Source: Ostreococcus lucimarinus
Lineage: Eukaryota
Length of the DNA: 64,000 bases
Assembly (NCBI GenBank): GCA_000092065.1
Contig: CP000588.1
Direction: 5' to 3' (one strand)
The notes under the pieces are model-generated. The model worked only from the letters and a program-made list of their open reading frames with translations. It did not search any database and was not told where the DNA came from. The position numbers and the translations under genes are program-made. Positions 3,204 through 56,540 of the stretch are shown here, piece by piece. Positions within the stretch are counted from its first letter, which is position 1. Every line of letters starts with the position of its first letter.

Positions 3204-3354
3204 GCGCGCCGTAATCTATTCGCCTCGCCGCCGCGCGTCGTCAGTCGTCGCGCCGCGTTCGAACCTCCATCGCGTTCGAGCCTCCGCTCGCGCGTCGCCG
3301 TCCGTTCGGCCGCGCGCGGACGACGACGACGGCACCGTTCGCGTCGTCGGACGC

Positions 3355-3356
3355 GT

Positions 3357-3411
<55 letters not shown>
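3355..3411. repeat. (GTC)n/(GAC)n microsatellite of about 19 units with one interruption. It lies in the divergent spacer between the CHCH gene and the HA-repeat gene.
   Basis: Direct reading of gtcgtcgtcgccgtcgtcgtc... Confidence 0.95.
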
Positions 3412-3746
3412 CTTCGCATCGCGCGTCGTCGCGTCGTCTCGCGCACCCGTATCCGCGCCTGCGCGCCCGATCGAGCGTCGTTCGCCCGCGCCGCGCTCTT
3501 CGACGCGCCCATGGCCGTCGCGTCGCCGTCTCGCGCCGTCGCGCGCGCGCGCCGCGGTGGCGCCGCGCGCCCGAGATCGAGACTGTGCGTCACACACGGA
3601 CTGAGAATGAAACGAGACTGCGTATCACACACGGACGACGGGATAAGGTCGGACGGTCGTCGCGCGCGCGCGCGCACACGGCGCCGCGGCCTCGGCGCCG
3701 AGCACGGCGCGAGCGATGACGAACGAACGCGCGCGAACGTGAGGAC

Positions 3747-5744
3747 ATGGTGGCGACGGCGCGGGCGACGGCGCGGGCGATAAGGACGCGCGATGGCACG
3801 CGATGGCACGCGAGGGGACGCGCGCGGAGGCGCGCGGACGCGCGACGCGGGACGCGCGCGAGAGGGACGTCGCGCGAGGACGCGGACGTGGACGTGAGCG
3901 GAGACGCGAGCGCGCGCGCGGAGGCGAGGGAAGACGACGAAGCGATTCGAGAGGAACGGCTGACGCCCGAGGATGAACTCTTGGCGAAGATTGAGGCGAG
4001 ACGAGAGGCGATGTTTCGAAGGAGCGAACGGACGAGGGCGACGAACGCTGGGCGCGATGAAGACGGAGTGGATTCGACGATCGATCGGGAGGAGACGCGA
4101 CGGGAGGACGAGCGGGAGGCGACGACGTCTGGGCGAAGACGAGACGAGTCGCCGTCGCGTCGGCGGCGAGTCGCGTCGGCGGCGGAGGATCCGTCGGCGG
4201 TGAGATCGAATGAGAAGCGAATCGAGGGCGATAGCGTCGGTGGTAGAGCTCGTCGAGAGGACACAGAGTTAGTCTGGGTGCTCGAACGTCCGGGTGAGGG
4301 CTGGGGAGAGCAGATTTTGCCAACCATCAAAGCGGAGCGCCGCGCGGTGGAGCGCCCGGCGCCGAGAAGGGCGCTGAGCTCTAGCGAGGAGTTTTTGATA
4401 CGCGAGATCGGCTTGAGTTCGGACGAAGTCGTGGCGGCTTTGAGTGCGGCCGCGGCGTGGCGCACGACGAAGAAGGGCCGAGCGTTGGTAGATAAGCGAC
4501 GCATGCGCCTCGTTCAGCAAAACGTCCTCCCGTGCGCGCAGACGATGTTCAATTTCGGCGCGTCGAAAGAGGATATGGCGCAGATTGTGCGAGATTATCC
4601 CATCGTCTTATCCCTCGACACTTCAACGGCATGGAATATGGATTTTGTGGAGTACGTCGTTCGGCAGAAAACCGAAAGCGGGGGCACGAAGGGTCGCATT
4701 CGAACGAAGGCGTACACAGGACGTCGCCCTACTGTCAAATCCATCTACAGACCCGAAAGAGTTTCCGATCACATGACTGAGTGGATCAGTCAGCAGCGTA
4801 GCGATCGTGACGAAGGTTTACTCAATCAAGAGCAGTTGTACTTACTCGACGCTATCGGATTCGACGCTGATAGATACGTCACGCAAGACATGTTGTTGAA
4901 ACGAAAAGGTAGAAAGGTTTGGGAGAAGTGGTTCGAAGAGCTCATCACTTTTCAGCAGCGCACCGGGCTGACGAATCCACCTTACGAAGAGGGTGTGACC
5001 ACAGGTCTCGGCGCTTGGCTGGAAGAGCAGCGGGAGTTGTACCGCATCGGCGAATTAGTCGATAAGCGAGAGGAGCGCTTGCGCGCGCAGGGCATCGCTT
5101 TTGACTCGCTCGAAGCGCTCGAGGAAGTCAAGAGGTTGAACTCGTTCGTTCGCGATACGACCATCGAACCTGTCGAGAACATACTTGCAAACACGCAGTT
5201 CACGCAGCTTGCTTTAGAACTCCGAGCTTTCCTCAACGAGAATGGGGAATACGCGGAGCCCAACGTCAATTCACCGCTCGGCGTGTGGGTCATCAAGACG
5301 CGCGCCAAAGTGCGAGACGGCACGATTCGCGACGAAGACATGCAGGCTTTAGAGCAACTCAACCTCGATATGGTCTACATCCCGGAAAGTTGGGTTGCGA
5401 TGTTAAACGTTTACGCGGACATGCGTGCGAGGCGCTCGAATTCCCTCGGCGTGGACATCATGAGAGTGAAAGCTTGGCAACGCGAACAGCTCGACCTCAT
5501 GAGGCGCAACGATGGCTCACTCACGCAGGCGCAGGTCAATCGTCTGCGCCACGTAGCCGCGATCGACAACATCGCTGGCTTCGCGTCAAACGCAGTACGC
5601 AGCGCGCGCGAAGAGCGTGCGAGAGAGTTTGCCGAGTTTGAGGCGCGCGTCGCCGCACGCAAGGCACGCTTGGAAGCGCTCGAAAAAGTCAAGCTGTCCA
5701 TTGACGAAGAACAAGACGAAGAACACGAAACGGACAATACTTAG
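3747..5744 (+). CDS. Protein with an R/E-rich N-terminal extension, mTERF-like motifs and C-terminal helicase-associated (HA, PF03457-like) repeats
   Basis: mTERF-like units LIREIGLSSDEVVAAL...NFGASKEDMAQIVRDYPIVLSLD. Three HA-like units with the W..F..L..F....G...P...LG.W...QR pattern (WEKWFEELITFQQRTGLTNPPYEEG, LGAWLEEQRELYRIGEL, WVIKTRAKVRDG). ATG at 3747. TGTAA at 5761, 17 nt after the stop. Confidence 0.5.
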   Translation: MVATARATARAIRTRDGTRWHARGRARRRADARRGTRARGTSREDADVDVSGDASARAEAREDDEAIREERLTPEDELLAKIEARREAMFRRSERTRATNAGRDEDGVDSTIDREETRREDEREATTSGRRRDESPSRRRRVASAAEDPSAVRSNEKRIEGDSVGGRARREDTELVWVLERPGEGWGEQILPTIKAERRAVERPAPRRALSSSEEFLIREIGLSSDEVVAALSAAAAWRTTKKGRALVDKRRMRLVQQNVLPCAQTMFNFGASKEDMAQIVRDYPIVLSLDTSTAWNMDFVEYVVRQKTESGGTKGRIRTKAYTGRRPTVKSIYRPERVSDHMTEWISQQRSDRDEGLLNQEQLYLLDAIGFDADRYVTQDMLLKRKGRKVWEKWFEELITFQQRTGLTNPPYEEGVTTGLGAWLEEQRELYRIGELVDKREERLRAQGIAFDSLEALEEVKRLNSFVRDTTIEPVENILANTQFTQLALELRAFLNENGEYAEPNVNSPLGVWVIKTRAKVRDGTIRDEDMQALEQLNLDMVYIPESWVAMLNVYADMRARRSNSLGVDIMRVKAWQREQLDLMRRNDGSLTQAQVNRLRHVAAIDNIAGFASNAVRSAREERAREFAEFEARVAARKARLEALEKVKLSIDEEQDEEHETDNT

Positions 5745-13486: not shown

Positions 13487-13718
13487 CGTCGTCGTCGTCG
13501 TCCGCGCGCGCGTCTCGCGCTCGATCGCCCCCCCGCGTCGCTCGCGCCGCGCTCTGCGTCGTCGGAGCGACGCGACGGCGACGCGACGCGACGCGACGAC
13601 GGCCTGACGGCGCAACACCTGTTGCGAGATCTGGGTGTCCGCGGGACACCCAGACGCGCGCGGACGACGCGGTGAACGAGGAAAACGCGAACGAAAGACC
13701 GCTCGCGCGCGGACGCCG

Positions 13719-14633
13719 ATGTCGAACCACCCGAGCGTGGCGTGGAGCGCCGCGCGCGTGGCGCTGGGCGTGCTGTTTTGGGAGGGACAATTTCAGATCT
13801 CGAAACAATGCTTTGCGAAGAGATTGCCGGAGACGAGCGAGAAGGAACGGACGTATAAACGCGCGGTGAGCTCGTACATCGTGTCGTTCGTGCACGCGTT
13901 TTTCTTGACGTGGGCGGGGTGGAGGATCGTGTTTAAACTGCGACTGGGGAGCGTGGCGGAACGACTGTCGCTGTACGCCAACGCGGACGCGTCCTTCGTG
14001 GGATTCGTCGAGGTCGTGACGATCGCGTTTTTTAGTTACGTGGTGTATGATTTGTTACACGTGATTGAACAGTACCCAGATTTGGGAGGCGTGGATATCT
14101 TGGCGCATCACTTGGGGTTTTTCACCGCGTCGCTGTTGGCGTACGCGTACGGGGCGTATCCTTTCATGTTGGGGTGGTTGTGCACGTGCGAGACGTCGAC
14201 GCCCATACTCAACACGCGGTTTTTCATCAAGTCGTGGCGAGAGATGGAGTACACGCTACCGAATATCGATGCCTTGGCGAAATTTTTCGGGATGAAGACA
14301 CGAGGCGTGGTGGCTGGCAACTGGCTCGAGTATTACGTGAGCGTGGCGTTTTTGTGGGTCTTTGTTGCCGTACGCGTGGTGGGTTACGGTGGCGCCTTGA
14401 TCGCGTTGACGTTTGATTTGAAGTCAGTGGAGGATAATTACATCCCGTACCCCGTGCGGGCGACGCTGTACGCACTCACGTGCTGTGGATTTGTACTCAA
14501 CGCCGTCTGGACGTACAAGATTTACGGGATGGTCAAGCACTTTCGCCGAAAGACGTTGAAGCAGCGCGACGCGTGCGAAGAGCCGATCAGCGACAGCGAA
14601 GAGGAAGATCCCTCGGTCCAAAAGCGAAGTTAG
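13719..14633 (+). CDS. TLC-domain (TRAM/LAG1/CLN8) membrane protein
   Basis: Multi-pass membrane protein with HHLGF...Y...E(T)STPxLN(T)RFF, a TLC-like signature. ATG at 13719. TGTAA at 14662. Confidence 0.6.
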   Translation: MSNHPSVAWSAARVALGVLFWEGQFQISKQCFAKRLPETSEKERTYKRAVSSYIVSFVHAFFLTWAGWRIVFKLRLGSVAERLSLYANADASFVGFVEVVTIAFFSYVVYDLLHVIEQYPDLGGVDILAHHLGFFTASLLAYAYGAYPFMLGWLCTCETSTPILNTRFFIKSWREMEYTLPNIDALAKFFGMKTRGVVAGNWLEYYVSVAFLWVFVAVRVVGYGGALIALTFDLKSVEDNYIPYPVRATLYALTCCGFVLNAVWTYKIYGMVKHFRRKTLKQRDACEEPISDSEEEDPSVQKRS

Positions 14634-14728
14634 TATTTTAGCGTGTTTGGGTTGGCGATGATGTAAACCGTAGTTTGTTGTGCATATATGAAGAATTCTT
14701 GTTTAAGTGACTACAACCTGTGCGCCGC

Positions 14729-16108
14729 TTAGCGGCGCATGAAACCGCCGCCGCCTCTGCGTTCGCTGCCTCGGTTCCACGGGAGTCTCGACTCTCTCGG
14801 CGGCGCGGGTGCATCGTCTTGTTGTCGCGAGCGGCCTCCAACTGCAGCTTGTTCGCGGAATTTACCACCCGGTCCAGCTGGTTGGAAACCCGTCGCGACG
14901 ATGGTCACCGCGATTTCACCCGTGTGCTTCTCGTCGACGACAGAACCGAAGATGACGTTCGCTGACGGGTCCGCAAGCGAGGTGACGACTTCGGAAACGG
15001 TGTTGACCTCCATGAGCGTCATGTCCGGACCACCGGTGATGTTAAACACGATACCAGTCGCTCGGTCAATGGAGTGCTCAACGAGAGGAGCGCTCATGGC
15101 GGCTCTCGCGGCCTCCTCGGCGCGGCCCTTACCGCTCGCCACGCCGACACCGAGCATGGCGGTACCGCTGTCCTTCATTACCGCGCGAACATCGGCGAAA
15201 TCGACGTTGACGAGACCTGGAATCGTGATAATGTCAGAAATACCTTGCACACCTTGACGCAAGACGTCGTCGGCGAGCAAAAACGCCTCCTGAAGAGCAG
15301 TGCCTTCCTCCACGACATCGAGCAAGCGATCGTTCGGAATAACGATCAAAGTGTCAACATTCGCTCTAAGCGCTTCGATGGCTTCGGTGGCTTGTTGAAT
15401 TCGTCGTCTTCCTTCGAACGAGAAGGGGTACGTCACGACGCCGACGGTCAAGATGCCCTTCTCGCGCGACATCTTCGCAACCACCGGCGCGGACCCACTC
15501 CCGGTTCCGCCGCCCATGCCCGCGGTAATGAACACGAGATCGGCGCCCAATACTGCCCGTTCGAGCTCCTGTCGGCTTTCAGTCGCCGCGATCTCCCCGA
15601 GCTCAGGGTTACCGCCCGCGCCCAAGCCTCGCGTCACCTGCTCGCCGATTTGGCACTTGTTCGGCGCGAGCGAGTTCACCAGCGCCTGAGAATCCGTGTT
15701 GACCGCCCAGAATTCCACGCCCTACCGCGTCGAAACATCACACCGCCGTCAGTCATTCGCGTCCGCGCGCCGTTCGTCGAGCGCGTCGTCGCGCGCGCGT
15801 CCTCGACCCGCGGCTTCGTCGTCGCGTTTGAATCGCGCGCGCCAGACGCGGCGCCAGCTCGCGCGTCCCACCTGTAATCCGCTGCTGATCATGCGATTCA
15901 CCGCGTTCCCGCCCCCCCCGCCGCATCCGATCACCTTGATCACCGCCGCGCTCGCCCTCGCGTCCACCGCGCGTCGTCGCGCGCGCGTCGTTCCTCCCAC
16001 GCGTCGCGTCCGCGTCGCCATCGGCGTTCGCCCGAACGCCGCGAGCTCGTTCGTCTTCGCGCGCGCGCGCGCGCCGAGCGCGCCGTGCGCGCGCGTCATC
16101 GCCGCCAT
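14729..16108 (-). CDS. FTSZ: Plastid-division GTPase FtsZ with a transit peptide. Two exons: join(16108..15862, 15721..14729).
   Basis: [14 protein letters not shown] (exon 1), then [10 protein letters not shown]...[16 protein letters not shown]...NVDFADV. The 140-bp intron (15722-15861) has a GTGGGACG donor and a GACTGACGG branch 28 nt before TAG. There are about 50 aa of S/R/A-rich presequence after the ATG at 16108. Confidence 0.85.
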
Positions 16109-16468
16109 CGCGAGCGTCGATATCGGATGCTCGACCGGTCGTGCGCGCGCGTGTGACGGCGCGGGCGCGAGTCGCGCGCGACGGATCGTCGTCCCAGCGC
16201 GATTTCGAACGAAACAATGATTTTGGCGGGAACCCGCGGACCGGGGCGGGGCGACACCGCGGCGACACCGCGGCGCGCGCGAGCGAGCGCGATGGTGCAC
16301 GCGAGCGGGACGAGCGACGTGGACGTGCGTGAACGAACGAACGCGCGGGCGACCGCGCGCGCGCGCGAGGAGCGCGAGCGCGAGCGCGACGCCGCGACGA
16401 CGACGGGGGCGGGAGACTGACGGGAACGGGAACGGGAACGCGCGCAGAGCTCGCAATTGCGAGTGAAG

Positions 16469-17711
16469 ATGACGGGACGACCGCTGCCGAGATGCGCGGA
16501 CGAAGAACTCGGGTTCGGGACGGTGCGCGCGCGATGCGAGGCGACGCGCGCGCGCGTTGGGCTTTGATTCGGGACGCGGCTTTGGTTTGTGCTTTGGTCG
16601 GGGCGACGCGAGGAGGCAAAAGGGGACGCGATGACCGATGACTGACGACGCGCGCGGGGACGATGTGAACGAACAGGTCATCACCGATCACATGTTGAAG
16701 ATTGAGTGGAACGTCGAGCGCGGTTGGAACCATCCGATGATTCTCCCGAGCGGACCGGTGGGGTTGCACCCGTTCGCGCACGTGTTTCATTACGCCGTGG
16801 AGTGCTACGAGGGCATGAAGGCGTACGTAGACAATAATGGATCGGTGCGATTGTTTAGGCCAGAGATGAACATGCAGAGATTTCGCGTCTCCGCGAAGCG
16901 AATGTCTCTCCCGGATTTCGACGGAGAGCAACTGCTAAAATGTATCGAAACGTTGGTTGACATAGACAAGGACTGGATTCCGAAGCAGAGAGGGTACTCT
17001 ATGTACCTGCGACCGGTGATTTTCTCCACTACGCCTTGGTTGGGCTTGACGCAGTGCGCGGAGGCGATGATTCTCGTGTTGTGCTGTCCCGTGGGGCCGT
17101 ATTTCAAGTCTGGATTCGTGCCGATTAAGTTGAGCGTCGACTCAAAGTACATTCGAGCGTGGCCTGGGGGCACCGGTAACGTCAAATCAGGCGGTAATTA
17201 CGGTCCTACGGTAATTTCTCAGGCCGCCGCGACCGCGAATGGGGCTTCTCAGTCGCTGTTCGTGTATGATAAGCACGAATACGTGACCGAGGCAGGGACG
17301 ATGAACATTTTCTTCCTCATTCGCAACGAGCAAGGGGTGAAACAACTCATCACGCCTTCGTTAAAAGATGGTACAATCTTGCCTGGAGTCACGAGGCAAA
17401 GCGTGATTGAGCTTAGCCAACAATGGAACGAATGTGAGACTGTAGAAAAGATGATTCCTTTCGCCGAGATCAAGGCGGCGTTTGAGAGAGGCGACGTGTT
17501 GGAAATCTTTGGCACCGGCACCGCCGCGGTGATCCAACCAATCAATGGTATCGTGTACGAAGGCAAGGAGTACAAACCGGTCGTTCCATTTGATGATTCG
17601 ATGCTTCAGGTTCGGCTCACGAATTTCCTCATCGGTGTGCAGTACGGAGACATCGATCACCCGTGGTCGCACGTCGTCCCACCCTCGACGACTTGGTCCA
17701 AACCCATGTGA
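16469..17711 (+). CDS. BCAT: Branched-chain amino-acid aminotransferase (class IV PLP). The simple model is ATG 16638..17711. An alternative model is join(16469..16522, 16677..17711).
   Basis: ITDHMLKIEWN...YEGMKAY...LFRPEMNMQRF match BCAT. Two consecutive perfect intron signatures lie upstream: branch GACTGACGG at 16431 plus CAG at 16440-16442, and a donor GTGCGCGC at 16523 with branch GACTGACG at 16639 plus CAG at 16674-16676. This makes the ATG at 16638 possibly intronic. TGTAA at 17811. Confidence 0.8.
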
Positions 17712-17957
17712 TGTGCGAGGCGGACACACAGTCGTTAAACAAGTCCCTTAAGTCTATTCTTCCACACATAGTTTTTAGCGCTCGACGGCTATTCTGTCGC
17801 GAGTATCTAATGTAAATCGCGTTGTTTCAAACTCTTTCACTAGCCAAGGCCAGAAAGGCCAAGTGACGGTCGACAACTCTTTTCTCTAGCGCCACACTCG
17901 TCAAACACCGCGCGTGCGAGACGCGGCGCGCGCGACGCGACGCAAAGCTCGATCAAA

Positions 17958-18923
17958 ATGAGCTCGAACGTAACAATTTCATCTCCTCGAGCGCTCGCGG
18001 CGCGTTCGTCCGCGCACGCGCGCGGCGTCAGCGCGAAACGCGTCGCGGGGGACCGTTATTCGTGCCACGGTCGGACGCGAGGTCGAGTGCGCGCGAAGCC
18101 GACGATCGCGCGATGTGCGCGCTCGACCGACGATACAACTCGCGCAATAACGTGTGTTTCTTCGTTCATGAGCGCTCGCGACGGTCAAAACGCGCTGAAC
18201 ATGTCGACACGTGCGCGATCGATCATCGCTCGAGCGTCGAGCGACTTTGGGAGCGCAAACGCTGGGACGCCGCCTCCGCCAAAGGCGACGAATCCGATCG
18301 ATACATTCGTCGGTGGATTGAAAGATAGATTGGAGATGGACTCGAACTTTTTCTTCAAACTCGGGGCGGAGATCTCGATCGATTTCGTCATAACGTTGCT
18401 CGTAAACTTGGCGGTTCGAGGAAACCCTTCATACTGGACTCTGTCGGCGACTCTCATGGTGTTGTGCCAACTCATCACGGCGGCGATCAACGATACGTTG
18501 ATTGTTTACTTTTTGGCGCCGACTAAGGCGAGCGTGGGGAAGAAACCTGAGATTGCGAACGTGTTCGCGAAGGGTGACTACTCGCTTGCGCAGCGCGCGA
18601 TGTGCTACTTGAACAAGGGGAAATTTTACGGTATACTAGGCTCACTATCTTGCGTCCTATCCATGTTTCTGGCGTTGGCGTTGGCGGGCAACGCCGCAGG
18701 ATTCACACAAGAGGTATTGTTCCGTTCTCTTGCGTGTGGAGCATTGCATATGGGGATCAGCTCTAATACAAGATATCAGCTCGTGAACGGCGTCGAACGT
18801 TTGGCGTACGACGTCGCACCCACGAACGTCGCCAAACTAATCTCTGTGTCGGTACGAATGGGGAATAACTTTCTAGGTGCGAGACTTTGGATGATGGTGG
18901 CCGTACTCACCGGTCTTCAGTAG
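17958..18923 (+). CDS. Plastid-targeted polytopic membrane protein, possibly of the RETICULATA-related (DUF3411) family
   Basis: S/R/A-rich presequence, then hydrophobic helices with NDTLIVYFLAP...GNAAGF. The family assignment is tentative. Confidence 0.35.
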   Translation: MSSNVTISSPRALAARSSAHARGVSAKRVAGDRYSCHGRTRGRVRAKPTIARCARSTDDTTRAITCVSSFMSARDGQNALNMSTRARSIIARASSDFGSANAGTPPPPKATNPIDTFVGGLKDRLEMDSNFFFKLGAEISIDFVITLLVNLAVRGNPSYWTLSATLMVLCQLITAAINDTLIVYFLAPTKASVGKKPEIANVFAKGDYSLAQRAMCYLNKGKFYGILGSLSCVLSMFLALALAGNAAGFTQEVLFRSLACGALHMGISSNTRYQLVNGVERLAYDVAPTNVAKLISVSVRMGNNFLGARLWMMVAVLTGLQ

Positions 18924-18992
18924 TTAGATTGCCATGTATTACTAACAATCTTCGGTCGTTTGTGCTATGGCCAGACACCCTTCTTTCCATCG

Positions 18993-20390
18993 CTAATCGA
19001 ATAGAGCGAACGCGTCTGAGTCGTCCTTCGACCCTTTCGCACGGTTGTGGCTGTGCTTGTTCACGAACTCTGTCAACGTGAGCAACGCAGAATTTAGAAT
19101 TGCGCGCTCGGAGTTTATCAACTGAATTGCCAACTCAACACGCGGAGGCGAGACGCCGCCATCTATGTTTGTTTGCGAACGATACAAGCTCAAGCGCCGT
19201 TCAATCGCGAGCGAAATAACATCCGCAACCTCCGGCGTGAGCGTTGACGGGTTGTTTCCACGTATTTTCATTGTGTTGATTGCCGTAGAGACTGTTTCTA
19301 TGGCGTGTAGTGCGTCCGCATGCCGATTTGTGTGCCTAATTTTCTGAAACGCGTCCTCGCTCGCGACCAAGGTCCAGACCACCGCACAGAGCTCTTCACT
19401 AATAGCTTGCGATTTTGAAATCGAAAACGACGCATCTGGGGCACACACTTGCGTCCGTTCGAGCCATTCGAATCGTTTTGTCAGCTGTGTCCCAGAACAC
19501 ACGCCTGCTAACGCCGCTTCGGTGCGAATGTTCGTAGTCGTCAGTCGCACTTCGTCCGCTGGATTGTCGTTTTGAGTGAATCCATAACTATTGAGTAGCT
19601 TCGCGTTCCCATGAAATCCATACGTGTTAAAAATCTCATCTCCACGGCGGACGCCTTGCTCGTTCGTCACCTTCACGCACAATGCCTCACCACCAGTCTC
19701 TGAACGCACGACGGCATCGCCATCGCCCACGTTGACGTGATGGTTGCCGGTGAGATGGTTAAACGCATCGGCAATCGGCACCAACCCAACGCCCGCGTTC
19801 GGGCTTAAAGTGAACGCGCGACTACTCACTACAGTACGCGCTTCGATAAATTGCTCGAACGAACACTCTACGCCGTGCTCCTTAAATACTGGCGCGACGA
19901 CGCGTTCCCACTCGTTCTTTGCAGCCGCCGCCTCGTCCCTGAGAGAAGTTTCGACTTCCGTGCCCGCGAGATAGCTCCGCTCGCCATCGTTCCACGCGCA
20001 CACGACGTTAGCTTCACACCTCGGTAACACTCTATCGTACGCGAAGTACCGCGACTTCAACCCGAGAGAACGCTCCACGCAAAGCGCCGCCGTCAACCCG
20101 CACAACCAACTCGCCTCTGTCTTCGTCTTCACTAAAGCCTCCTCCACGCTCGCCGCCACGTCCGCGCGCGAACACGTCTTCAGCGTCAAGCACGCTTCGA
20201 ATGGGATCACCGCCAAAATAGCGCCGCGCTCGAGCGCGCGCTTGGCCGTCACGCCGCGGTCCTTGTTCGCCTTTTGCACGGCAAAAGTGAATTCAACGTC
20301 ATCCTCGCGCACTTCGATCGCGTTCGCTCGACACCATCGCAAAAAAGCGTCGAACGCGTCATCGTTCGCCTCGTCACCGTTCTCTTTCAT
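18993..20390 (-). CDS. SET-domain protein lysine methyltransferase (RBCMT/SETD6-like)
   Basis: FNH...GDEIFNTYGFHGNAKLLNSYGFTQ... is a SET core with a Rubisco-LSMT-like substrate-binding region. ATG at 20390 confirmed. Confidence 0.7.
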   Translation of the reverse strand: MKENGDEANDDAFDAFLRWCRANAIEVREDDVEFTFAVQKANKDRGVTAKRALERGAILAVIPFEACLTLKTCSRADVAASVEEALVKTKTEASWLCGLTAALCVERSLGLKSRYFAYDRVLPRCEANVVCAWNDGERSYLAGTEVETSLRDEAAAAKNEWERVVAPVFKEHGVECSFEQFIEARTVVSSRAFTLSPNAGVGLVPIADAFNHLTGNHHVNVGDGDAVVRSETGGEALCVKVTNEQGVRRGDEIFNTYGFHGNAKLLNSYGFTQNDNPADEVRLTTTNIRTEAALAGVCSGTQLTKRFEWLERTQVCAPDASFSISKSQAISEELCAVVWTLVASEDAFQKIRHTNRHADALHAIETVSTAINTMKIRGNNPSTLTPEVADVISLAIERRLSLYRSQTNIDGGVSPPRVELAIQLINSERAILNSALLTLTEFVNKHSHNRAKGSKDDSDAFALFD

Positions 20391-20480
20391 CTCGCGACGC
20401 GCGCGCGAGTGGCGTGCGAAAGCGCGTCAGGCCAAAAGTGTGTTGATACAAGTCTCTACGGCGTCTCGAGCGCGCGTCCG

Positions 20481-20796
20481 TCACGCCTTCCACAGTGATT
20501 TCACCGTTCGCGTGATCCCGTCGCCCTGCGTGTTCAATTTAAACAATCCCACCGCCGTCGCCGCCGTCAGCGCGAGCGTCGCCGCTCTCGTCGGTCCTCG
20601 CGCCCCCTTCGGCACGTAATCGCTGATGATCTGCGTCCCGTCGCCCGCGCGCCGCTCGTCAGTCAATCGTTCCCCATCGCATCGCGCGCGTCGTCGATGC
20701 GCCGAGTCCCGCGCGCGTCCCGCGCGCGCGGTGCCCGCGTGCGATCCCGTCCGCGCGATGGCGTCCGATTTCGCATCGATCACGCACGAAATTCAT
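20481..20796 (-). CDS. Candidate small single-pass membrane protein of about 53 aa with a 9-nt start micro-exon. Two exons: join(20796..20788, 20630..20481).
   Basis: ATGAATTTC followed by donor GTGCGTG. The 157-bp intron has branch GACTGACG (+ coordinates 20657-20664) 24 nt before CAG. Exon 2 encodes IISDYVPKGARGPTRAATLALTAATAVGLFKLNTQGDGITRTVKSLWKA with one transmembrane helix. No homolog recognised. Confidence 0.3.
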
Positions 20797-21112
20797 CGCA
20801 ATGTGCGAGTGCACCGGCATCGCCGCGCCGAGCGCGACGTCGATCGCGAGCTGTCCCTCGGGCATCGCCGCCGCCGCTGGCGCGAGCGCGGCGAGCGCGA
20901 TCGAGCTCGCGTGATAGATCTTCATCATCCCGCGCCCGCGATCGGCGTTCAGGACGCCCGACATCGCGCGCGGCGTCCACGCGCGAGGCGATGTGACGCG
21001 CGCGGTCCCGACCGGACGGACGTCGGGCCGTCGAGCCGGCGGGACAGACGCGCGATTTTCAAAAACGCGCGTCACACGCGAGCGACGACGACGGCGACGA
21101 CGACGGGCGAAC

Positions 21113-22282
21113 ATGGGAATCAAGGGCCTGACGGCGCTGATGCGAGACAACGCCCCCGGGGCGATCAAGGAGCAAAAGTTCGAGTCCTACCTCGACCGGC
21201 GCGTCGCGATCGACGCGTCGATGCACATTTATCAATTCATGATGGTGGTGGGGAGACAGGGCGAACAACAGCTGACGAATGAGGCGGGAGAGGTGACGTC
21301 GCACTTGCAGGGGATGTTGAATCGAACGTGCCGAATGCTCGAGGCGGGAATAAAGCCGATTTACGTGTTCGATGGGAAGCCGCCGGTGATGAAGGGAGGA
21401 GAGCTGGCGAAGCGCAAGGACAAGCGAGAAGAGGCGGAGGCGGCGTTGAAGGCGGCGAGAGAGGCGGGAAATCAAGAAGAGGTGGAGAAACTGTCCAAAA
21501 GAACGGTGCGAGTGAGCAAGCAACACAGTCAAGAGGTGATGAAACTCGCGTCGTTGCTCGGAGTGCCCGTGTTCGAGGCGCCGTGCGAAGCCGAGGCGTC
21601 GTGCGCGGCGATGTGCAAGGCGGGACTGGTGTGGGCGGTGGCGACGGAGGATATGGATACACTCACGTTCGCCGCGCCGCGGTTGGCAAGAAATTTGATG
21701 GCACCCAAGTCTCAGGACAAGCCGGTGCTGGAGTTTGACTACGACAAAGTTCTAGCCGGTCTCGGGCTCACGCCCGAGCAATTCATCGACATGTGCATCT
21801 TGTGCGGGTGCGACTATTGCGACACCATTCGCGGGATCGGTCCGAAGACGGCGTTGAAGCTTATCAAAGAACACGGTTCCATCGAAAAGATTCTCGAAGA
21901 GATCGACACTGAGAAGTATCCTCCGCCTCAGGATTGGGATTTTGCCGGCGCTCGTGAGTTGTTCAAAAATCCCGAAGTCATGGACACGACGGGCATCGCA
22001 TTGAGTTGGAAGGCGCCAAACGAGGAAGGATTGATTGACTTTTTGGTCAAGGAAAAGCAATTTAACGAGGAACGCGTGCGCGCCGTGTGCGCCAAAGTCA
22101 AGAAGGCGCGCCAAGGTAAAGCGTCGCAAAACCGCCTCGAGAGCTTCTTCGGCCCGCCGACCATAATCTCCAGTACCATCGGCAAGCGCAAGGTTGAAGA
22201 AAAGAAGGGTAAAAACGGCAAGGCTGGTCTCGCGAACAAAAAGTCTAAAGGCGTCAGTGGCTTCAGACGATCGAAGAACTGA
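21113..22282 (+). CDS. FEN1: Flap endonuclease 1 (FEN1)
   Basis: [26 protein letters not shown]...[10 protein letters not shown] (XPG-N), then XPG-I and a K-rich PCNA-binding C-terminus. ATG at 21113. Confidence 0.9.
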
Positions 22283-22361
22283 TAGCTATCGAATAGAACA
22301 CTGTATGTTGTCATGTCACACCACTTCAAACACGCTTTGGACGCGACCTCCACAACTCGCC

Positions 22362-23018
22362 ATGCCGACGCTAGTGAATACCCGCGCCGTCGTGACATCT
22401 GAGCACGTGTCCACGTCTACGCCGCGCGCGCGTGGCGCCGCATCACGCGTTACTGTCGCACACGCGTCGTCGTTCAGCCGCAACGTGTGTGCATCTTCTC
22501 TCGCCTTGCTCGTGAATTTCACCCAAGCAAACGTAGCGTTCGCGGCACCAGCTGCGCCGTCATATAGCGGTGTGGACCCGAGCAAGAGCTCCTTCATCCA
22601 AGGATTGGTCGATAAGAGCGAGAAGGACAAGGCGAAGAACGATCAAGCGCGACTCGATAACTTTTACAGACGAGAGTATCGGATAAACCGAATCGTCGGT
22701 GGCGAAGTTCTGAAGGAGCCGTGCGATCCCCGGGATCCAGAATTTGGTTATGAGTGTAGGCCAATGCTCCCACGATTGCCGCAGGATCGAGGTGGGTTCG
22801 ATGAGCCCTTAGAGAGAGAGAAGACTGGATACGGGAAAGTACTCGGGACGCGAGATGTCGACAGAGCCGCAGACGCTCTCGTCGCTGCGGCGGTGGACGA
22901 GACGCTCGAACGAGCGATCGAGACTATCGATGGCGAATCAGACGCGAATGGTGACGCGGTAGCCCGCTTTGACTCGGATACTGAATTCTCGCCGAGCGTT
23001 CAGGGCTTGTCCGAATAG
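22362..23018 (+). CDS. Hypothetical protein with a bipartite plastid/thylakoid-lumen-type presequence, possibly PsaN-like
   Basis: S/T-rich presequence, then a hydrophobic LALLVNFTQANVAFA AxA-type motif. The mature part LVDKSEKDKAKNDQARL...C...C resembles PSI-N loosely. An alternative ATG is at 22305. Confidence 0.3.
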   Translation: MPTLVNTRAVVTSEHVSTSTPRARGAASRVTVAHASSFSRNVCASSLALLVNFTQANVAFAAPAAPSYSGVDPSKSSFIQGLVDKSEKDKAKNDQARLDNFYRREYRINRIVGGEVLKEPCDPRDPEFGYECRPMLPRLPQDRGGFDEPLEREKTGYGKVLGTRDVDRAADALVAAAVDETLERAIETIDGESDANGDAVARFDSDTEFSPSVQGLSE

Positions 23019-23155
23019 TTTTATGAATTTATATTGACGCCGCTGGCTTAGAGTTTTAATACAAGGATTGGAATATAGTTACAGCAATCGCAAACTAATG
23101 CAAGTCATTTCGCTCGCTCGCGCGCCCGCCAAAGTGTGCGCTTTCGCATTGTCTA

Positions 23156-24208
23156 TCAATACGTGATGGGCCCTTGAAGGCTACCGGTGGCGAACTGTCG
23201 CACGATGGGCTCGTCCGTCGTATCAAATTCCTCCACCGTTCCTTCCCACGCAACCTTGCCTTGGTGTAAGAAAACGATTCTGTCGACCGATCGACGAATC
23301 GTACTATGCTGGTGCGTGACGACGATGTAGCTCGACACCCCACCGTTCACTTCACAATGCTCATCCGGTTTGCAGTGCAATGATCGCATCAAGTCCTCCA
23401 CTACCGTGCTCGCCACCGGGTCCAATCCAGCGGTCGGTTCGTCGTACATCACCACCTCCTCGATTGGGTCATCATCGCTCTCACGCTCTTCTTTGATAAT
23501 CGCGCGGGCCAACGCCGCGCGCTTCTTCATCCCTCCCGAAAGCTGCGCCGGGTACTTGTCCTCGCACCCCGGCAATCCAACCGCCGCTAGACTCTTTTTC
23601 ACTGCTCGCTCAACCTTCGCCTTGGGCAAGTCGCTGTGCTCGTATAACTTAAATCCAACATTTTCACCCACCGTCAAAGAATCGAACAGCGCCGAGGACT
23701 GAAACACCATTCCGACGTGCAACTCTGGATGCGCCTCGTCGCTCGCCAACCCTTTCCTGCGTTTGCCTCGGATGTACACTTCGCCCTCGTCCGGTATCAA
23801 TAGCCCAGCCATGATGCGCAGCACGGTGGATTTCCCAGTCCCACTCGGTCCGATGATCCCGACCGCCTCGCCTCGTCGAACCTTAAAGCTCGCTCCGTCC
23901 AGGACTACTTTCTCGCCGAACGCCTTCTTCACCCCTCGGAGCTCGATTAACACTTCAGACGACGATTCGTTCGACGTGCCGTTTCGTCGCGCGACCGCGG
24001 GCGCTTTTTCGCCCGCGTCTGCGTCGACATCATCGTCGTTCGTCTCTTCAGCGTTTGCCGCCGATCCGCCGTCCACGACCGCGCGCGCGACGCTTCTTCG
24101 TCCTCGTCCGTGCGCAATCGCTCCACCTCGCGCGCGACGAGAACCGCTCGTCGACGCGCGATGGCACGCGGGGGAGCGCGCGGGACGAGCGTAAGACGCG
24201 GAAGTCAT
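23156..24208 (-). CDS. TGD3: TGD3-type ABC ATPase (MlaF-like) of the plastid lipid-import system, with a transit peptide
   Basis: LIELRGVKKAFGEKVVLDGASFKVRRGEAVGIIGPSGTGKSTVLRIMAGLLIPDEGEVYIRGKRR is nearly colinear with plant TGD3. LSGGMKKRAALARAI is present. ATG at 24208. Confidence 0.8.
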   Translation of the reverse strand: MTSASYARPARSPACHRASTSGSRRARGGAIAHGRGRRSVARAVVDGGSAANAEETNDDDVDADAGEKAPAVARRNGTSNESSSEVLIELRGVKKAFGEKVVLDGASFKVRRGEAVGIIGPSGTGKSTVLRIMAGLLIPDEGEVYIRGKRRKGLASDEAHPELHVGMVFQSSALFDSLTVGENVGFKLYEHSDLPKAKVERAVKKSLAAVGLPGCEDKYPAQLSGGMKKRAALARAIIKEERESDDDPIEEVVMYDEPTAGLDPVASTVVEDLMRSLHCKPDEHCEVNGGVSSYIVVTHQHSTIRRSVDRIVFLHQGKVAWEGTVEEFDTTDEPIVRQFATGSLQGPITY

Positions 24209-24499
24209 CGCTATGCGACTCCGCGTGCGCGCGGTAGTGGGAACAAACGCCACTCGCACGAACACGCCGTCGACTTACGCCGCAGTGTGGCGATCGGGCG
24301 GTCGGTCTCTTGGGTCTCTTGATAGATAACGCGTTTACCAAGTGCGGACGCTAGTGCGAGAAACGAAAGGCGAGGTTGCCGCTGGTAACACTTAAGGTGA
24401 TAATATGATACTAAAACGACGTCAAAGTGGCTCACTGGTCCATGACGCATTCGCCTTGCGACGGCGCGGATGGAAACTGAGCTTTTCTCTTGGACGCCG

Positions 24500-25834
24500 T
24501 CACGCGGCGGGAAAGGCGCCGCGGCGTTCTTCGTCTTGTCTACTCGAAGTGGACGCGTCGTTGGAGGTTTGAGACTTGTTCTGTGACGCAATTGGTGGAA
24601 TGATTGCGTCGTTGTAACGATGATACAGCACGTTTGCCACCGCACGATCGATGTAATTGGAGTCTTTGTCGACGCTCCCGGAGGACGCGAGTTCATTTTC
24701 AGCGACTTCGGAAGACCGCATGAGCCGGAGCAAACTTTCTCTGAAATTCGTACGAGTGGCGTCCGGAAGATTGCGGACAATCATCTCAAGCTGCGCGAGC
24801 ACTGCTCTGTCTTCAGTCGCAATCAAATCGCTCGTCGTGGATGGCATTTGCGAGTTCGATGCACCGCCCGGTACGCGCAGCAATGTCCCGGTAGAGCCCG
24901 ACATTGAACCAGAGTGCGATCCAGATGTACCCTTGGAGACTTGGCTATAATGTTGGGTACGATAAGACCTCGCGGCGGATGGTAGAACGCCCCTCGCTAA
25001 TTCTTCCTCTTGACGTGCCGAAGCTTTTCTACCGACTGTCATCGCATTCTGCGTTGGCACAGATTTCAATAGTGCTCCATGCTCTTGCTGCTTCAGCGCA
25101 TCAGTTGCACCTACTGACGCATATCCTAAGCCTTGCGATTCCCCCGGTACAGACGTATTCGTAAACGGATCTAATCCGCGGGCGTACAAACTTGCGCCGT
25201 CAAAGCCGTCAAACAATTCGTGTTCCACTGTCCTCGCCGTCGCCCCGCCAAGCAGATCTCCAGCATGTGCGAGCGATTGAAACGAAAATGACGACATTTT
25301 TGGAGGTGCGAATGGATTCAACACGCTCAAATCAGGATCGAGAATGCCCTCAGAACTTGGTGTGGCAAGTTCCACCATGATGGTTTGAGTGTGCACGCCT
25401 AAAAAGGCGTCGAGTTCCATCTTGGATTCAATCGCACTCGAGACGCTCGTGTGGTTCGACAGTTTCGCTCGCTTATTCGGTGAAGATGGTGAAGACGTTG
25501 CCGCCCGGCGCCGAGAATCGCTCGCCTTCTCGCTTGCCATGAATTGCTTCTTCGTCGCCTCAGCGCTCTTCGTCTGAGCCCCTTTCGCCAACGCCGCTCC
25601 ACCGGCCTTTGTGCTCGTCGTCTTCTCTGTTTTTAAAGTTTTCACCTCCCTTTTCTCCGCGTTCTTACCCCCATCTCGACTCGTCGACACTTCACCGTTC
25701 GTCGTCGCTCTCTCGCACGCCCCCTCGCCTTTGACCGCCAGCGAGGCAGAGTCCCCGCCGCCCGCGCTCGACGTCCAACGCATCCCGCGCCTTCGCGCAC
25801 CGCTCGTCGATGGCACACGCGCATCTCTCACCAT
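24500..25834 (-). CDS. Hypothetical S/T/A-rich nuclear-type protein with a KRAKL NLS-like motif
   Basis: Long ORF with an ATG at 25834. It is low-complexity and no domain was recognised. Confidence 0.35.
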   Translation of the reverse strand: MVRDARVPSTSGARRRGMRWTSSAGGGDSASLAVKGEGACERATTNGEVSTSRDGGKNAEKREVKTLKTEKTTSTKAGGAALAKGAQTKSAEATKKQFMASEKASDSRRRAATSSPSSPNKRAKLSNHTSVSSAIESKMELDAFLGVHTQTIMVELATPSSEGILDPDLSVLNPFAPPKMSSFSFQSLAHAGDLLGGATARTVEHELFDGFDGASLYARGLDPFTNTSVPGESQGLGYASVGATDALKQQEHGALLKSVPTQNAMTVGRKASARQEEELARGVLPSAARSYRTQHYSQVSKGTSGSHSGSMSGSTGTLLRVPGGASNSQMPSTTSDLIATEDRAVLAQLEMIVRNLPDATRTNFRESLLRLMRSSEVAENELASSGSVDKDSNYIDRAVANVLYHRYNDAIIPPIASQNKSQTSNDASTSSRQDEERRGAFPAA

Positions 25835-27010
25835 CGCGCCCCTCCTTGGACGCGTTCACCGAGTCCACGACGCGCGCGCGAGTAAACTAACTCGCCGACG
25901 CCGATCCTCCCGCGTCGACAGAATTCGCGCGATGACGCCCTCTATCGCTCGTCTCGACGTCCAACGCTGGGTTCGTTCGCGCGCGCGTTCGACGACGACG
26001 CGCGATCGCGACCGCGCGCGATCGTCGGCGGCGGCGGCGCGCGACGAGGCCGCGCGCGTCGATGACTGGGCTGGGCACGCGTGTTTGTTGGGCATCGGAC
26101 TGCTTTCCATACGATTTGGCGCCGAATGTCCGAACATCGCCCACGAAAAAGTCGAGATATTTTCAGCGGCGTTTCAGAACGCGTCGACGCGCGGTGGGCG
26201 ATCGGGCGACGGACGTCGACGCGACGATTGATCGGACGATTTTTTACCCAACCCTGACGCGATCCCCCCACCGCGCGTCGCTACGCGTCGTTGACGATGC
26301 GGTGGAAGCGCGGCGCGCTCGAGGCGAGGCGCCGCGGCCGCGCGAACGCGAGCGCGCTGAGCGTGCTGTGGTTCATCGCGATCAAAGGCGGGGAGAGCGA
26401 AAGGAGCGAAAGCAGAGTTCACGCATTAGATTTGAGTGATGTCGCATCGCGCGTGCGGTGGCGGGACGACGTCGCGATGGTGGACGTGTTGTCGTACGTC
26501 GCGTCGCGTCGCGACGAGCGCCGCGAGTGGGCGAGTCGCGCCGTCGAGCGCGTCGAGCGCGAGATGACCGCGGTGAGCGCAAACGCGCTCACGACGAAGT
26601 TTGCGTTCGCGATCGTCAACTCCACGCACGGCACGCGAGGCGTGCGCGCGTTCGAAGACTTTTTCTTCTCCGGCGGTCGCGTTCTCGACGATGACTATGC
26701 CGTCTTCGTCGCCGCGCACCGTCAACCGTCGGACGTTCGTGCGTCCGCGCGCGTCGATTGTCCTCCCAGCGATGATAGCATATTTTGCGTCGATCGCATC
26801 GCTTTCGCCCTTCGCGACGTCCTCGATCGCGTCCGCGAGAGGAGCTCGTAGTCGGTCTCGCGTCCCCGGCGCGCCCGAGGTCCACTCGAGGGGGGCTGTG
26901 TCGGTGATTTGATTATCCACGTTATCCACTCGCGTCGACCCGCACTTTTCGACCGTCGCGCGCGTCTTCGTGCGCGAACGTTTGATTTCCTAACAGAGCC
27001 GTCCTCGCGC

Positions 27011-30382: not shown

Positions 30383-31333
30383 TCACAGTTCAGTCGCTTG
30401 ATGCACGGTGAACGAACCGACGGCGAGCAAGATGGTGCCTATGAAGAGAGTCAGCCACTCGCGCGAGAAATATTTCAACACGCGCACGCCGAGAGCGACT
30501 CCGACCAATCCGCACGGCAAAATCAAAAGCACGAGCCCGGGGTCGGGCTTTTTTCCACGAGCAGTGGTGCTGACGATCGCTGCGATACCTAAGAATACGC
30601 TCTGAATCGCACTCATCGATAACATCACCTTGCGGTTCACCTTGCCTTTCCACAGTACTACAATCGGCAGGAAGCTTATCGGGCCGCCGGTTCCGGTGAG
30701 CACGCTGAGCATCCCCACGACGACACCGATGCTGAACAACAACCACATCTCGCGAGTCGTAGGTTCTAACCAGTACTCATCGCTTTTGCTCTCGCTCTCG
30801 TTCGCGTCGACCGCGTCCGCGCCGTCCATCTCGAGCGCCGCGTCTCCGTCGTCTCCGTCGTCTCCGCCGTCTTCCACCGTCACCACCGTCTCCCCCTCTC
30901 CCGCGCGTGACCGCGCCGCGCGCGAGCGCAATCGCCGCGCGCTGTCTGCGACGTCTTTCCCTCCCGCCACCAGCGCGACGAGACCTATGACGTACGTCAG
31001 CGCCTCTCTCGGGACGACGTCCAGGAGCGCGCCCCCGGCGACGCTCGCGCCGCACGCCCCTCCCGCCGCGGCGACGCCTCCCAGCCGCGTCGGAAACCGA
31101 TCGCGCGGCACTATTTTTCTCAGCATCCACACCCTGAGCGCCATCGTCGGCGTGAACGCGACGAACAGGGACACGATCCCGACCTCGGGCGTGCACGCCC
31201 TCGCGAGCAGGAGCGCGGGCAAGATGACGACGCCTCCCAGACCGACCGCGCCGACGAGCAGCGCGCCCGCGACGCACGCCGCGACGACGACGGCGACTTG
31301 TCCGAGCGTCAGCGCGCGCACGACGGTGTTCAT
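30383..31333 (-). CDS. TauE/SafE (DUF81) family anion exporter membrane protein
   Basis: Two halves of 4-TM repeats with G-rich helices (LGGVVILPALLL...GTGGPISFLPIVVL). The first ATG is at 31333. The ORF-track start is GTG. Confidence 0.65.
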   Translation of the reverse strand: MNTVVRALTLGQVAVVVAACVAGALLVGAVGLGGVVILPALLLARACTPEVGIVSLFVAFTPTMALRVWMLRKIVPRDRFPTRLGGVAAAGGACGASVAGGALLDVVPREALTYVIGLVALVAGGKDVADSARRLRSRAARSRAGEGETVVTVEDGGDDGDDGDAALEMDGADAVDANESESKSDEYWLEPTTREMWLLFSIGVVVGMLSVLTGTGGPISFLPIVVLWKGKVNRKVMLSMSAIQSVFLGIAAIVSTTARGKKPDPGLVLLILPCGLVGVALGVRVLKYFSREWLTLFIGTILLAVGSFTVHQATEL

Positions 31334-31521
31334 CGCGTCGCCGGGCGCGCCGCGGGGACGTCGAGCGACGCGACCGTCGAGCGACGGCGCGTCCGTCACC
31401 GCGCGCGGGCGTCGCGTAACGAACGCGCGGGCGCGCCGAACCCCGGGCCGGGCCGGGCGGTCGGCGCGCGCGTCGGCGCGTCGTCTTTTTCGCGCGCGGG
31501 CGTCTCCGTGATCTCGTCTCG

Positions 31522-33183
31522 ATGGCTTCGCGGGACGCGCTATACGAGGGCCGATCGATCGCGCGCGGCGATCGATCGATCGATCGATCGCGCGGTCGGT
31601 CGCCGCGCGCGGTTGACCGACCGACGCGCGCGGTGGGCCGCGAGAGCGCGACGCGACGTCGCGCGATGACGGCGGACGACCGAGGGTGGTGCGCGTACCC
31701 GAGCGAAGCGAAACGCGATCCCGCGAGCACGCTCGATCTGCCGCGCGGCGAGGACGACGGGAACGCCGCGTCGAGGGCGTCGAGAGTCGCGATGACGCGA
31801 GTCAAGGTGCCGAGCGCGTGCTGCGAGTTCGACGAGGACGCGACGGATGGGGGCGAAGCGGACGAGGATGGGTTGATCGAGGTGGACGTGACGATCGACG
31901 TCGATCGGGGGATGATCGAAGGCGTGCGCGAGTCGACGAGCACGAGGACGAGGACGGTGGGGGAGGAGGAGACGGCGGATTACGCGGAGAGCGACGAGGA
32001 CGAGGACGGCCGTCGCGGGCTTCGAGTGGCGATGGGCGGGAGGATGTGCTTACCGACGTTCGTGGACATACACACACATATAGATAAGGCACACACGTGT
32101 GAGAGGAGCCGAAATTTAAACGGCACCCTCGCTGGCGCGGACGCCGCGTGCGCGAACGATTTCCAACACTGGACGCTCGAAGACGCCAAGCGGCGCATGG
32201 GCTTTGCGATTCAGTGCGCGTACGCGTACGGGACCTCCGCCATGCGCACGCACTTGATGTCGGGTGAGGAGAGACAGAGCAAAATCGCCTGGGAAGCGTT
32301 CGGGAAGTTACGCGAGGAATGGAGAGGGAAAGTTGAGTTGCAAGGCGTGTCACTCTCGGTGTTGAGCTTTTTCCGCGACGAGACCAAGGCGCGCGCGCTG
32401 GCTCGCATGGTGAAATCTTATGGAGGTATACTTGGCGCCGCCGTGTCGTGTAGCGATGCAGGTGGTACACCACTGGATGTCCACACGACGTGCGGTGCCG
32501 ATATGCCCAAGTTATTGGACGTCATTTTCTCTCTGGCGAAGGAATACAATTTGGATGTCGACTTTCATTGCGACGAGAACGGCAATGAATCCTCCAAAGG
32601 CTTGCTCCACATTTCTGAGGCCGTCATTCGAAACAATTTCAAAGGATCTGTGGTGTGCGGTCACTGCTGCAGTCTCGCAGTTCAGCCAAACGAACAGGCA
32701 AAGCGCATCATCGACGCCGCCCGCGAAGCGGGCGTCACCGTTGTTTCGCTTCCAATCGTTAACCAATGGCTTCAAAATCGTGATCCAACGAACGAAGCGA
32801 CGCCAACGCGGCGAGGCGTTACTCGGGTGAAGGAGCTTGCCCGAGCTGGCGTGCCGGTGTGCCTTTCGAGTGATAATACGCGAGATCAATTTTTTCAATA
32901 CGGTGACTGTGATATGCTCGAGGTATTTCGATCGAGCGTTTGCATCGCGCATCTCGATCGACCTTTTGGATCGTGGCCGTTGGCTTTAGCTGCGAACCCA
33001 TCGCGCGCGATGCGACTTGGCGAAAAGTCGGGAATGATTGCTCCAGGAGCGAAGGCAAACTTTGTCTTGTTTCGCGCTAGGAATTACAGCGAGCTGTTTT
33101 CTAGATCGCAACATGATCGAGTCGTCATTCGTGATGGTGTCCGCATCGCTACTGCTTTACCAGATTATGAAGAGCTAGACTAA
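31522..33183 (+). CDS. Bacterial-type cytosine deaminase-like amidohydrolase (CodA family) with a long low-complexity N-terminal extension
   Basis: CLPTFVDIHTHIDKAHT is the CodA metal-binding HxH motif, followed by downstream amidohydrolase motifs (FHCDE, HCCSL). The first roughly 170 aa are R/D/E-rich and unrelated. The true ATG is uncertain. TGTAA at 33237. Confidence 0.7.
   Translation: MASRDALYEGRSIARGDRSIDRSRGRSPRAVDRPTRAVGRESATRRRAMTADDRGWCAYPSEAKRDPASTLDLPRGEDDGNAASRASRVAMTRVKVPSACCEFDEDATDGGEADEDGLIEVDVTIDVDRGMIEGVRESTSTRTRTVGEEETADYAESDEDEDGRRGLRVAMGGRMCLPTFVDIHTHIDKAHTCERSRNLNGTLAGADAACANDFQHWTLEDAKRRMGFAIQCAYAYGTSAMRTHLMSGEERQSKIAWEAFGKLREEWRGKVELQGVSLSVLSFFRDETKARALARMVKSYGGILGAAVSCSDAGGTPLDVHTTCGADMPKLLDVIFSLAKEYNLDVDFHCDENGNESSKGLLHISEAVIRNNFKGSVVCGHCCSLAVQPNEQAKRIIDAAREAGVTVVSLPIVNQWLQNRDPTNEATPTRRGVTRVKELARAGVPVCLSSDNTRDQFFQYGDCDMLEVFRSSVCIAHLDRPFGSWPLALAANPSRAMRLGEKSGMIAPGAKANFVLFRARNYSELFSRSQHDRVVIRDGVRIATALPDYEELD
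31545..31583. repeat. (CGAT)5-6 palindromic microsatellite in the TauE/amidohydrolase divergent spacer
   Basis: Direct reading of gcgatcgatcgatcgatcgatcgcg. Confidence 0.9.
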
Positions 33184-56347: not shown

Positions 56348-56430
56348 CGACGCGGCGGCGCGCAGTGCGGCGCGGCGATCGCGGCGGGGCGATCGCGGGA
56401 CGCCTGGTGGCGTGCGCGACGATGGGGCAC

Positions 56431-56540
56431 ACCGTCGGCGAGTCACGAACCGTCGACGAGTCACGAACCGTCGACGAGTCACGAACCGTCGACGAGTCAC
56501 GAACCGTCGGCGAGTCACGAACCGTCGGCGAGTCGGCGCG
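56431..56540. repeat. About 5.5 tandem copies of an 18-bp unit GAGTCACGAACCGTCGRC in the carB 5' region
   Basis: Direct reading. It produces the spurious RRRFVT and SHEPST repeats in ORF-track entries on both strands. Confidence 0.9.

Follow-up and report, generated by a model that had tools for sequence, protein, structure and literature searches.

A spliced minus-strand gene beside FEN1 in Ostreococcus lucimarinus very probably encodes SDH4, the predicted small membrane anchor of mitochondrial complex II

The 64-kb stretch of Ostreococcus lucimarinus CCE9901 DNA analyzed here (the window, to which all positions refer) contains, at 20481..20964 on the minus strand, a gene that we identify with very little doubt as nuclear SDH4 (SDHD, CybS). 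As judged from homology, its product would serve in mitochondria as the small subunit of the membrane anchor of complex II (succinate:ubiquinone oxidoreductase). The gene and its neighbours are compiled in Table 1. The initial annotation had placed a small, spliced membrane-protein gene between SET and FEN1, and such a gene indeed exists. Between the SDH4 stop codon and the ATG of the SETD6-like gene, which follows downstream, lie 90 nt. Pfam returned no match for this neighbour even at E ≤ 5; in the PDB, it matched human SETD6 (3qxy_A, 2.5e-20) and Rubisco LSMT (3.7e-4). Genes for the complex II partners SDH1–SDH3 were not found in the region of the window that was examined.

Table 1. Features of the SDH4 locus and the adjacent genes (window positions).
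Feature	Position	Strand	Description
SDH4 exon 1	20788..20964	-	177 nt, 59 codons; ATG at 20964; translation ends with HSHIAMNF
SDH4 intron	20631..20787	-	Spliceosomal, 157 nt, phase 0, between Phe59 and Ile60; 74% GC
SDH4 exon 2	20481..20630	-	150 nt, 49 codons plus TGA; translation IISDYVPKG...SLWKA and stop
SDH4/FEN1 spacer (head-to-head)	20965..21112		148 nt; 5' UTR and promoter region, non-coding
FEN1 (flap endonuclease 1)	21113..22282	+	389 aa; Pfam XPG_N and XPG_I; exact match to XP_001419144.1 / A4S1G4 of O. lucimarinus CCE9901
SETD6 / Rubisco-LSMT-like SET-domain methyltransferase	18993..20390	-	465 aa; PDB sequence matches

The spliced SDH4 mRNA contains 327 nt of coding sequence and specifies a product of 108 aa. 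Exon 1 encodes transmembrane (TM) helices 1 and 2 as well as His52; exon 2 encodes Asp63-Tyr64, TM helix 3 and a short C-terminal helix, and its translation is IISDYVPKGARGPTRAATLALTAATAVGLFKLNTQGDGITRTVKSLWKA followed by a stop codon. All of the elements named in the initial annotation, that is, the sequence motifs, the donor, the 157-nt intron, the acceptor and the downstream exon, are present on the minus strand. Its gene model was correct with respect to the intron and exon 2 and failed on the 5' side, where the last three codons of exon 1 had been taken for the whole first exon. The motif ATGAATTTC, from which translation had been thought to start, occupies 20796..20788 (minus strand) and represents the final 9 nt of exon 1 (codons 57–59, MNF). 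The reading frame that contains this motif is open far upstream, and the conserved start, the ATG at 20964, is located 168 nt beyond it. Exon 1 therefore comprises 177 nt and not 9 nt, and the real product has 108 aa, in place of the 53 aa that had been claimed and the 52 aa that the earlier model actually yields.

The gene had also been described as hidden. However, an exact-sequence look-up retrieved the 108-aa product as GenBank ABO97654.1, RefSeq XP_001419361.1 and UniProt A4S1G3, all from O. lucimarinus CCE9901. In GenBank, ABO97654.1 bears just the title 'predicted protein'; its functional name is taken from UniProt/UniRef, where A4S1G3 is called 'Succinate dehydrogenase [ubiquinone] cytochrome b small subunit', and from the record of the O. 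tauri orthologue XP_003080792.1, a protein of 108 aa with 77% identity that is named CybS. In the literature, the search for Ostreococcus SDH4 returned one incidental match and nothing specific. Databases and literature already cover the gene with its exon structure, its family and its splice signals, and the finding is an ordinary one. Its biological weight is small: complex II needs SDH4, and the reference annotation already has the identical exon structure.

The family assignment is based on several comparisons. The 108-aa product matched the Pfam family CybS (PF05328) with an E-value of 4.6e-14 and a score of 52.7 bits (cut-off 27), residues 18–107 being aligned with profile positions 40–133 and exon 2 with positions 82–133. 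No homolog had been recognised in the initial annotation, but the 52-aa fragment alone passes the same cut-off (32.9 bits versus 27). The small subunit of a respiratory complex had been listed there among several options, and this guess agrees with the product being the SDH4/CybS subunit of complex II. A phmmer search of the PDB retrieved the SDHD chains of pig (1zoy_D, 1.5e-8) and human (8gs8_D, 2.6e-8) as well as those of chicken, yeast and Ascaris, with E-values ranging over the SDHD chains from 1.5e-8 to 1e-3. The alignment with SDHD is nearly gapless over residues 21–107 and continues without interruption across the splice junction (HSHIAMNF-IISDYV versus HGHWGIGQVVTDYV; the hyphen marks the junction).

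Three hydrophobic segments were detected in the Kyte-Doolittle profile of the 108-aa protein. The AF2 model, which was obtained from a shallow alignment (5 orthologues) and has a moderate pLDDT of 77.3, contains helices at residues 2–33, 39–64, 67–93 and 98–107. The best Foldseek matches of this model in the PDB were the D chains of complex II from human, pig, chicken and yeast (TM 0.78–0.89, rmsd 1.4–2.2 Å), to which the protein is 29–34% identical. A single TM helix, as had been claimed, is at odds with the three found by both approaches. The description as tail-anchored-like does not apply either, since some 15 residues, including another helix, lie between the last TM helix and the C-terminus, and the protein is polytopic.

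His52 lines up with the first His of the LHGHWG motif of pig and human, and Asp63-Tyr64, which is located four residues past the splice junction, lines up with TDYV of pig. Neither the HSH nor the SDY motif varies among 5 orthologues or among the 79 environmental loci covering the junction. In E. coli SdhD, His71 is a heme ligand and Tyr83 is a quinone ligand (PMC2785890), and the His-to-Tyr spacing of 12 in SDH4 is the same as in the E. coli protein. The protein is thus a member of the CybS family: it matches the family profile, is modelled with three TM helices in the SDHD fold, and has a His at the axial-ligand position and an Asp-Tyr pair at the spacing of 12. By homology to solved complex II structures, SDH4 would fold as three TM helices with a short helix at the C-terminus and, together with SDH3, would form a membrane anchor of four to six helices onto which SDH1/SDH2 dock. 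On the same grounds, His52 may supply one axial ligand of heme b, and Asp63-Tyr64 is predicted to be part of the ubiquinone reduction site. Assembly of the protein into complex II and its mitochondrial location are likewise to be expected from homology.

The three-helix fold is shared with yeast Tim18, a component of the TIM22 complex (6LO8 chain D), which was among the Foldseek matches (6lo8_D; TMq 0.67, probability 1.00). Moreover, an SDHD protein would usually have a long presequence, which is missing here. Both observations could be accommodated if the protein were a Tim18-like paralogue with a structural role in the TIM22 carrier translocase, and not a working complex II anchor. We consider this very improbable, because the true SDHD chains outscore Tim18 in structural similarity (the TM values given above, with an rmsd of about 1.5 Å) as well as in sequence similarity (29–34% identity versus 20%). 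The redox-site residues are kept in the Ostreococcus protein, and every orthologue examined has the heme-ligand His and the quinone-site Asp-Tyr without exception, as predicted for a catalytic-site subunit. In addition, searches for orthologues and in metagenomes revealed one type of CybS orthologue per lineage, and a second paralogue was not found.

Translation of SDH4 starts at the ATG at 20964, as annotated, because a frame-shifting indel is located upstream of it, the upstream region cannot be aligned with that of O. tauri, and the N-terminus is conserved. Two other starts were weighed. Initiation at the in-frame ATG 21114..21112, up to which the frame is open, would add 50 residues that are Arg-rich and resemble a mitochondrial presequence overlapping the FEN1 start; the upstream extension of O. 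tauri is also open in one Logan ORF call (P0042). Such a product of 158 aa is extremely improbable, however, because a 4-nt indel near 21010 breaks the frame in wild O. lucimarinus-like sequences (L001–L004 versus the window), and the stretch 20965–21112 is unalignable with the upstream region of O. tauri. The N-terminus MSxxLxADxGRxMMK, which O. tauri, O. mediterraneus and the environmental orthologues share, starts at MS..L.AD, and the RefSeq model begins at 20964. Furthermore, the upstream ATG and the FEN1 ATG (21113..21115) share nucleotides in a CATG palindrome.

Initiation within ATGAATTTC (20796), that is, the separate, unannotated, single-pass and tail-anchored-like protein of 52/53 aa favoured by the initial annotation, has a similarly negligible chance of being correct. 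An ATG is present in this motif, and the 52-aa product has one hydrophobic segment, but this segment is helix 3 of a three-helix bundle, and the roughly 15 residues behind it include one more helix. Upstream of the motif, another 56 codons are open in frame and strongly conserved, and they align with helices 1 and 2 of SDHD. The product recorded in the databases is the 108-aa form, the cDNA-type contigs and P0025 (see below) reach upstream of 20964, and nothing suggests internal initiation at Met57. In the 108-aa protein that starts at 20964, only about 15 residues precede helix 1, and therefore SDH4 has no obvious cleavable mitochondrial presequence.

The splice signals of the SDH4 intron are the donor GTGCGTG (20787..20781), the branch site GACTGACG (20664..20657, with the branch A at 20659) and the acceptor CAG (20633..20631), all on the minus strand. 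The distance from the branch A to the G of the acceptor AG is 28 nt, and the gap between GACTGACG and CAG is 23 nt. The donor heptamer is not enriched in the window (17 copies versus 15.1 expected, with 33 of 100 shuffles reaching 17) and was rejected as stand-alone evidence, because it occurs at chance level. Only the branch octamer exceeds chance: 15 copies were found versus 4.5 expected, none of the 100 shuffles reached 15, and 14 of the 15 copies in the window are followed by a YAG 24–36 nt past the branch A. For EST-confirmed O. lucimarinus introns outside chromosome 2, the consensus of the 5' site is GTGCGTG, and 66.5% of these introns have GACTGACG (Irimia & Roy, 2008; PMC2483917). The motifs of the SDH4 intron equal this published consensus, and therefore the "intron signature" by which the gene had been noticed is the known consensus of the species. 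With its donor, branch site, YAG spacing and exact removal, the intron is of the U2-type, non-chromosome-2 class. It is single-copy within the 64-kb window. An introner-like (repeated, mobile) element was also considered and rejected, as the only matches within the window were CG-rich chance matches of 12–21 nt.

Three 1-kb bins of the window (3001–4000, 31001–32000 and 56001–57000) have GC contents above 0.72, versus a window mean of 0.58. Several of the GC-rich bins hold GACTGACG and CGCG-rich matches; they may represent GC-rich introns or low-complexity coding sequence.

The SDH4 intron is real and correctly delimited. In four Logan assemblies from four sequencing runs (L001/L007 from SRR28369095, L002 from SRR28369057, L003 from SRR28369218 and L004 from DRR699210), SDH4 is continuous over 327 nt, lacks exactly 157 nt and is rejoined at TTC-ATC, so that the splice junction of the initial annotation is confirmed by cDNA-type sequences. 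The contig L007 has a length of 12.2 kb and is more than 99% identical to window 26067..13593. Its 5' end is GTGGTATCAACGCAGAGTACGGG, the SMART cDNA primer/template-switch sequence, and therefore it is derived from cDNA. A second GT..AG intron, located in FtsZ (15871..15722, 150 nt), is also exactly absent from L007. Both consensus introns of an aminotransferase gene on the opposite strand are retained, which fits an RNA read in the minus-strand sense. We regard the Logan contigs as cDNA because of the adapter sequence, the precision of the GT..AG removals and the retention of the intron in all 26 intron-bearing metagenome loci, 6 of which are lucimarinus-like.

Because L007 keeps the aminotransferase introns, intron-less DNA alleles were considered as the source of the four spliced contigs. 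This origin was rejected because of the SMART oligonucleotide in L007, the exact removal of the FtsZ intron, the antisense orientation of the retained introns, and the SDH4 intron being kept in all 6 lucimarinus-like metagenome loci (L010, L054–L057 and L060). The intron is also kept in a 680-kb JGI contig (L008). Strains differ in the interior of the intron, with indels whose lengths are not divisible by three, but hardly at all in the exons; the donor and the last ~45 nt of the intron are also conserved. Splicing is seen as well in P0025 (source 'merc'), a Tara-derived entry assembled at the protein level, which reaches upstream of the SDH4 ATG; we take the catalogue of this entry to be metatranscriptomic.

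Several further observations were made for the region covered by L007. The FtsZ intron (15722–15871, minus strand, 150 nt) has the non-consensus donor GTGGGAC, the branch site ATGACTGACGG and the acceptor TAG. The two introns of the opposite-strand gene, which encodes a branched-chain aminotransferase, are located at 16325–16447 and 16523–16676 (plus strand) and have the donors GTGCGTG and GTGCGCG and the branch site GACTGACG. They are retained at L007 9262–9613, antisense to the RNA orientation of the contig, which suggests that long minus-strand transcripts run through the neighbouring genes. The SMART template-switch sequence (L007 1–23) is joined directly to window 26067 (minus strand). 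An ORF of 444 aa begins about 230 nt downstream of this position, which may thus represent a capped 5' end.

The ORF is conserved in related genomes, as the initial annotation would have predicted for a genuine gene: orthologues were found in O. tauri, in O. mediterraneus and in environmental Ostreococcus-like loci. The MMETSP transcriptomes contain the same protein in O. mediterraneus (P0004) and in another relative (P0009). A scan of metagenome contigs with the alignment of the SDH4 orthologues yielded 80 loci, 79 of which span the junction. An intron of 101–180 nt is present in 26 environmental loci at the identical phase-0 site, NF-I(I/V)SDY, with the donor GT(G/A)CGT and the branch site GACTGAC(G/C); the GC contents of these loci are Ostreococcus-like (0.56–0.61). 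The remaining 53 loci have no intron at this site, have GC contents of 0.40–0.455, 0.55–0.57 or 0.65–0.67, and presumably belong to other Mamiellales. Among the intron-bearing loci, L089, whose intron measures 130 nt, encodes a protein that is 94% identical to that of O. mediterraneus, and L071 is closest to O. tauri (84%). The other intron-bearing loci include the lucimarinus-like ones and several further Ostreococcus-like environmental groups. In O. tauri itself, the genomic SDH4 gene is a continuous 327 nt without an intron (L005/L006 3001–3327).

This pattern points to a precise loss of the intron in O. tauri, an intron gain after the divergence of O. tauri being the less likely alternative. 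Two readings appear about as likely as not: the intron may be genus-wide and precisely deleted in the O. tauri lineage, and SDH4 may reach the inner membrane without a cleavable presequence, by means of internal signals. If true, a genus-wide intron missing in O. tauri would represent a clean, recent loss in a very intron-poor genome. Neither the intron loss in O. tauri nor the presequence-free import alters the identity of the SDH4 gene.

Micromonas-like relatives (L061–L070, GC about 0.66) have no intron at the Ostreococcus SDH4 site. Their own intron (L062, 1556–1709) measures about 154 nt, is in phase 1, has a GTACGT donor and the branch site GACTGACG, and is located elsewhere, after ...IALA-G. 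A further intron is possible in these relatives just before ADRG.

Two lessons for gene calling emerge from this locus. Scanning for splice signals can recover real introns in O. lucimarinus, because the consensus is unusually strict in this species. The first ATG upstream of a donor is, on the other hand, unsafe as a start codon unless the extent of the open frame is checked. In catalogues of marine metagenomes, prokaryote-style gene calls split SDH4, read through its intron or start within it (P0001, P0002, P0005, P0007, P0008, P0010–P0013 and P0018). The resulting entries include 134-aa 'hypothetical proteins' and fragments of 61 and 100 aa that are named 'succinate dehydrogenase membrane anchor subunit'. 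Owing to the indels in the intron, different strains are read through in different frames.

Compared with other O. lucimarinus introns outside chromosome 2, the SDH4 intron shows no notable difference: its donor and branch site are the exact published consensus (PMC2483917), and its branch-to-AG distance is within the narrow range of the other GACTGACG copies in the window. Within the genus, the CybS protein of O. tauri (XP_003080792.1, P0003) and the MMETSP orthologue of O. mediterraneus (P0004) also have 108 aa, are 75–77% identical to the O. lucimarinus protein and have the same termini. The genes flanking SDH4 in O. tauri are the same as in O. lucimarinus (FEN1, SET-like and RETICULATA-like), but the SDH4 intron is absent; the O. 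mediterraneus-like environmental locus L089, unlike O. tauri, has an intron at the O. lucimarinus site.

The comparison with animal and yeast SDHD revealed two differences. Human SDHD has about 56 additional N-terminal residues, whereas O. lucimarinus SDH4 is devoid of a long cleavable presequence, and the O. lucimarinus gene differs from its animal and yeast counterparts by one phase-0 intron between Phe59 and Ile60. This intron is not known to coincide with an intron of human SDHD. The length of O. lucimarinus SDH4 (108 aa) is similar to that of the mature animal subunit (103 aa). The solved D chains of pig (1ZOY), human (8GS8), chicken (1YQ3) and yeast (9QDL) have the same three TM helices followed by a C-terminal helix, and the heme-ligand His, the spacing of the quinone-site Asp-Tyr and a C-terminal LWK motif are common to solved SDHD and O. 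lucimarinus SDH4.
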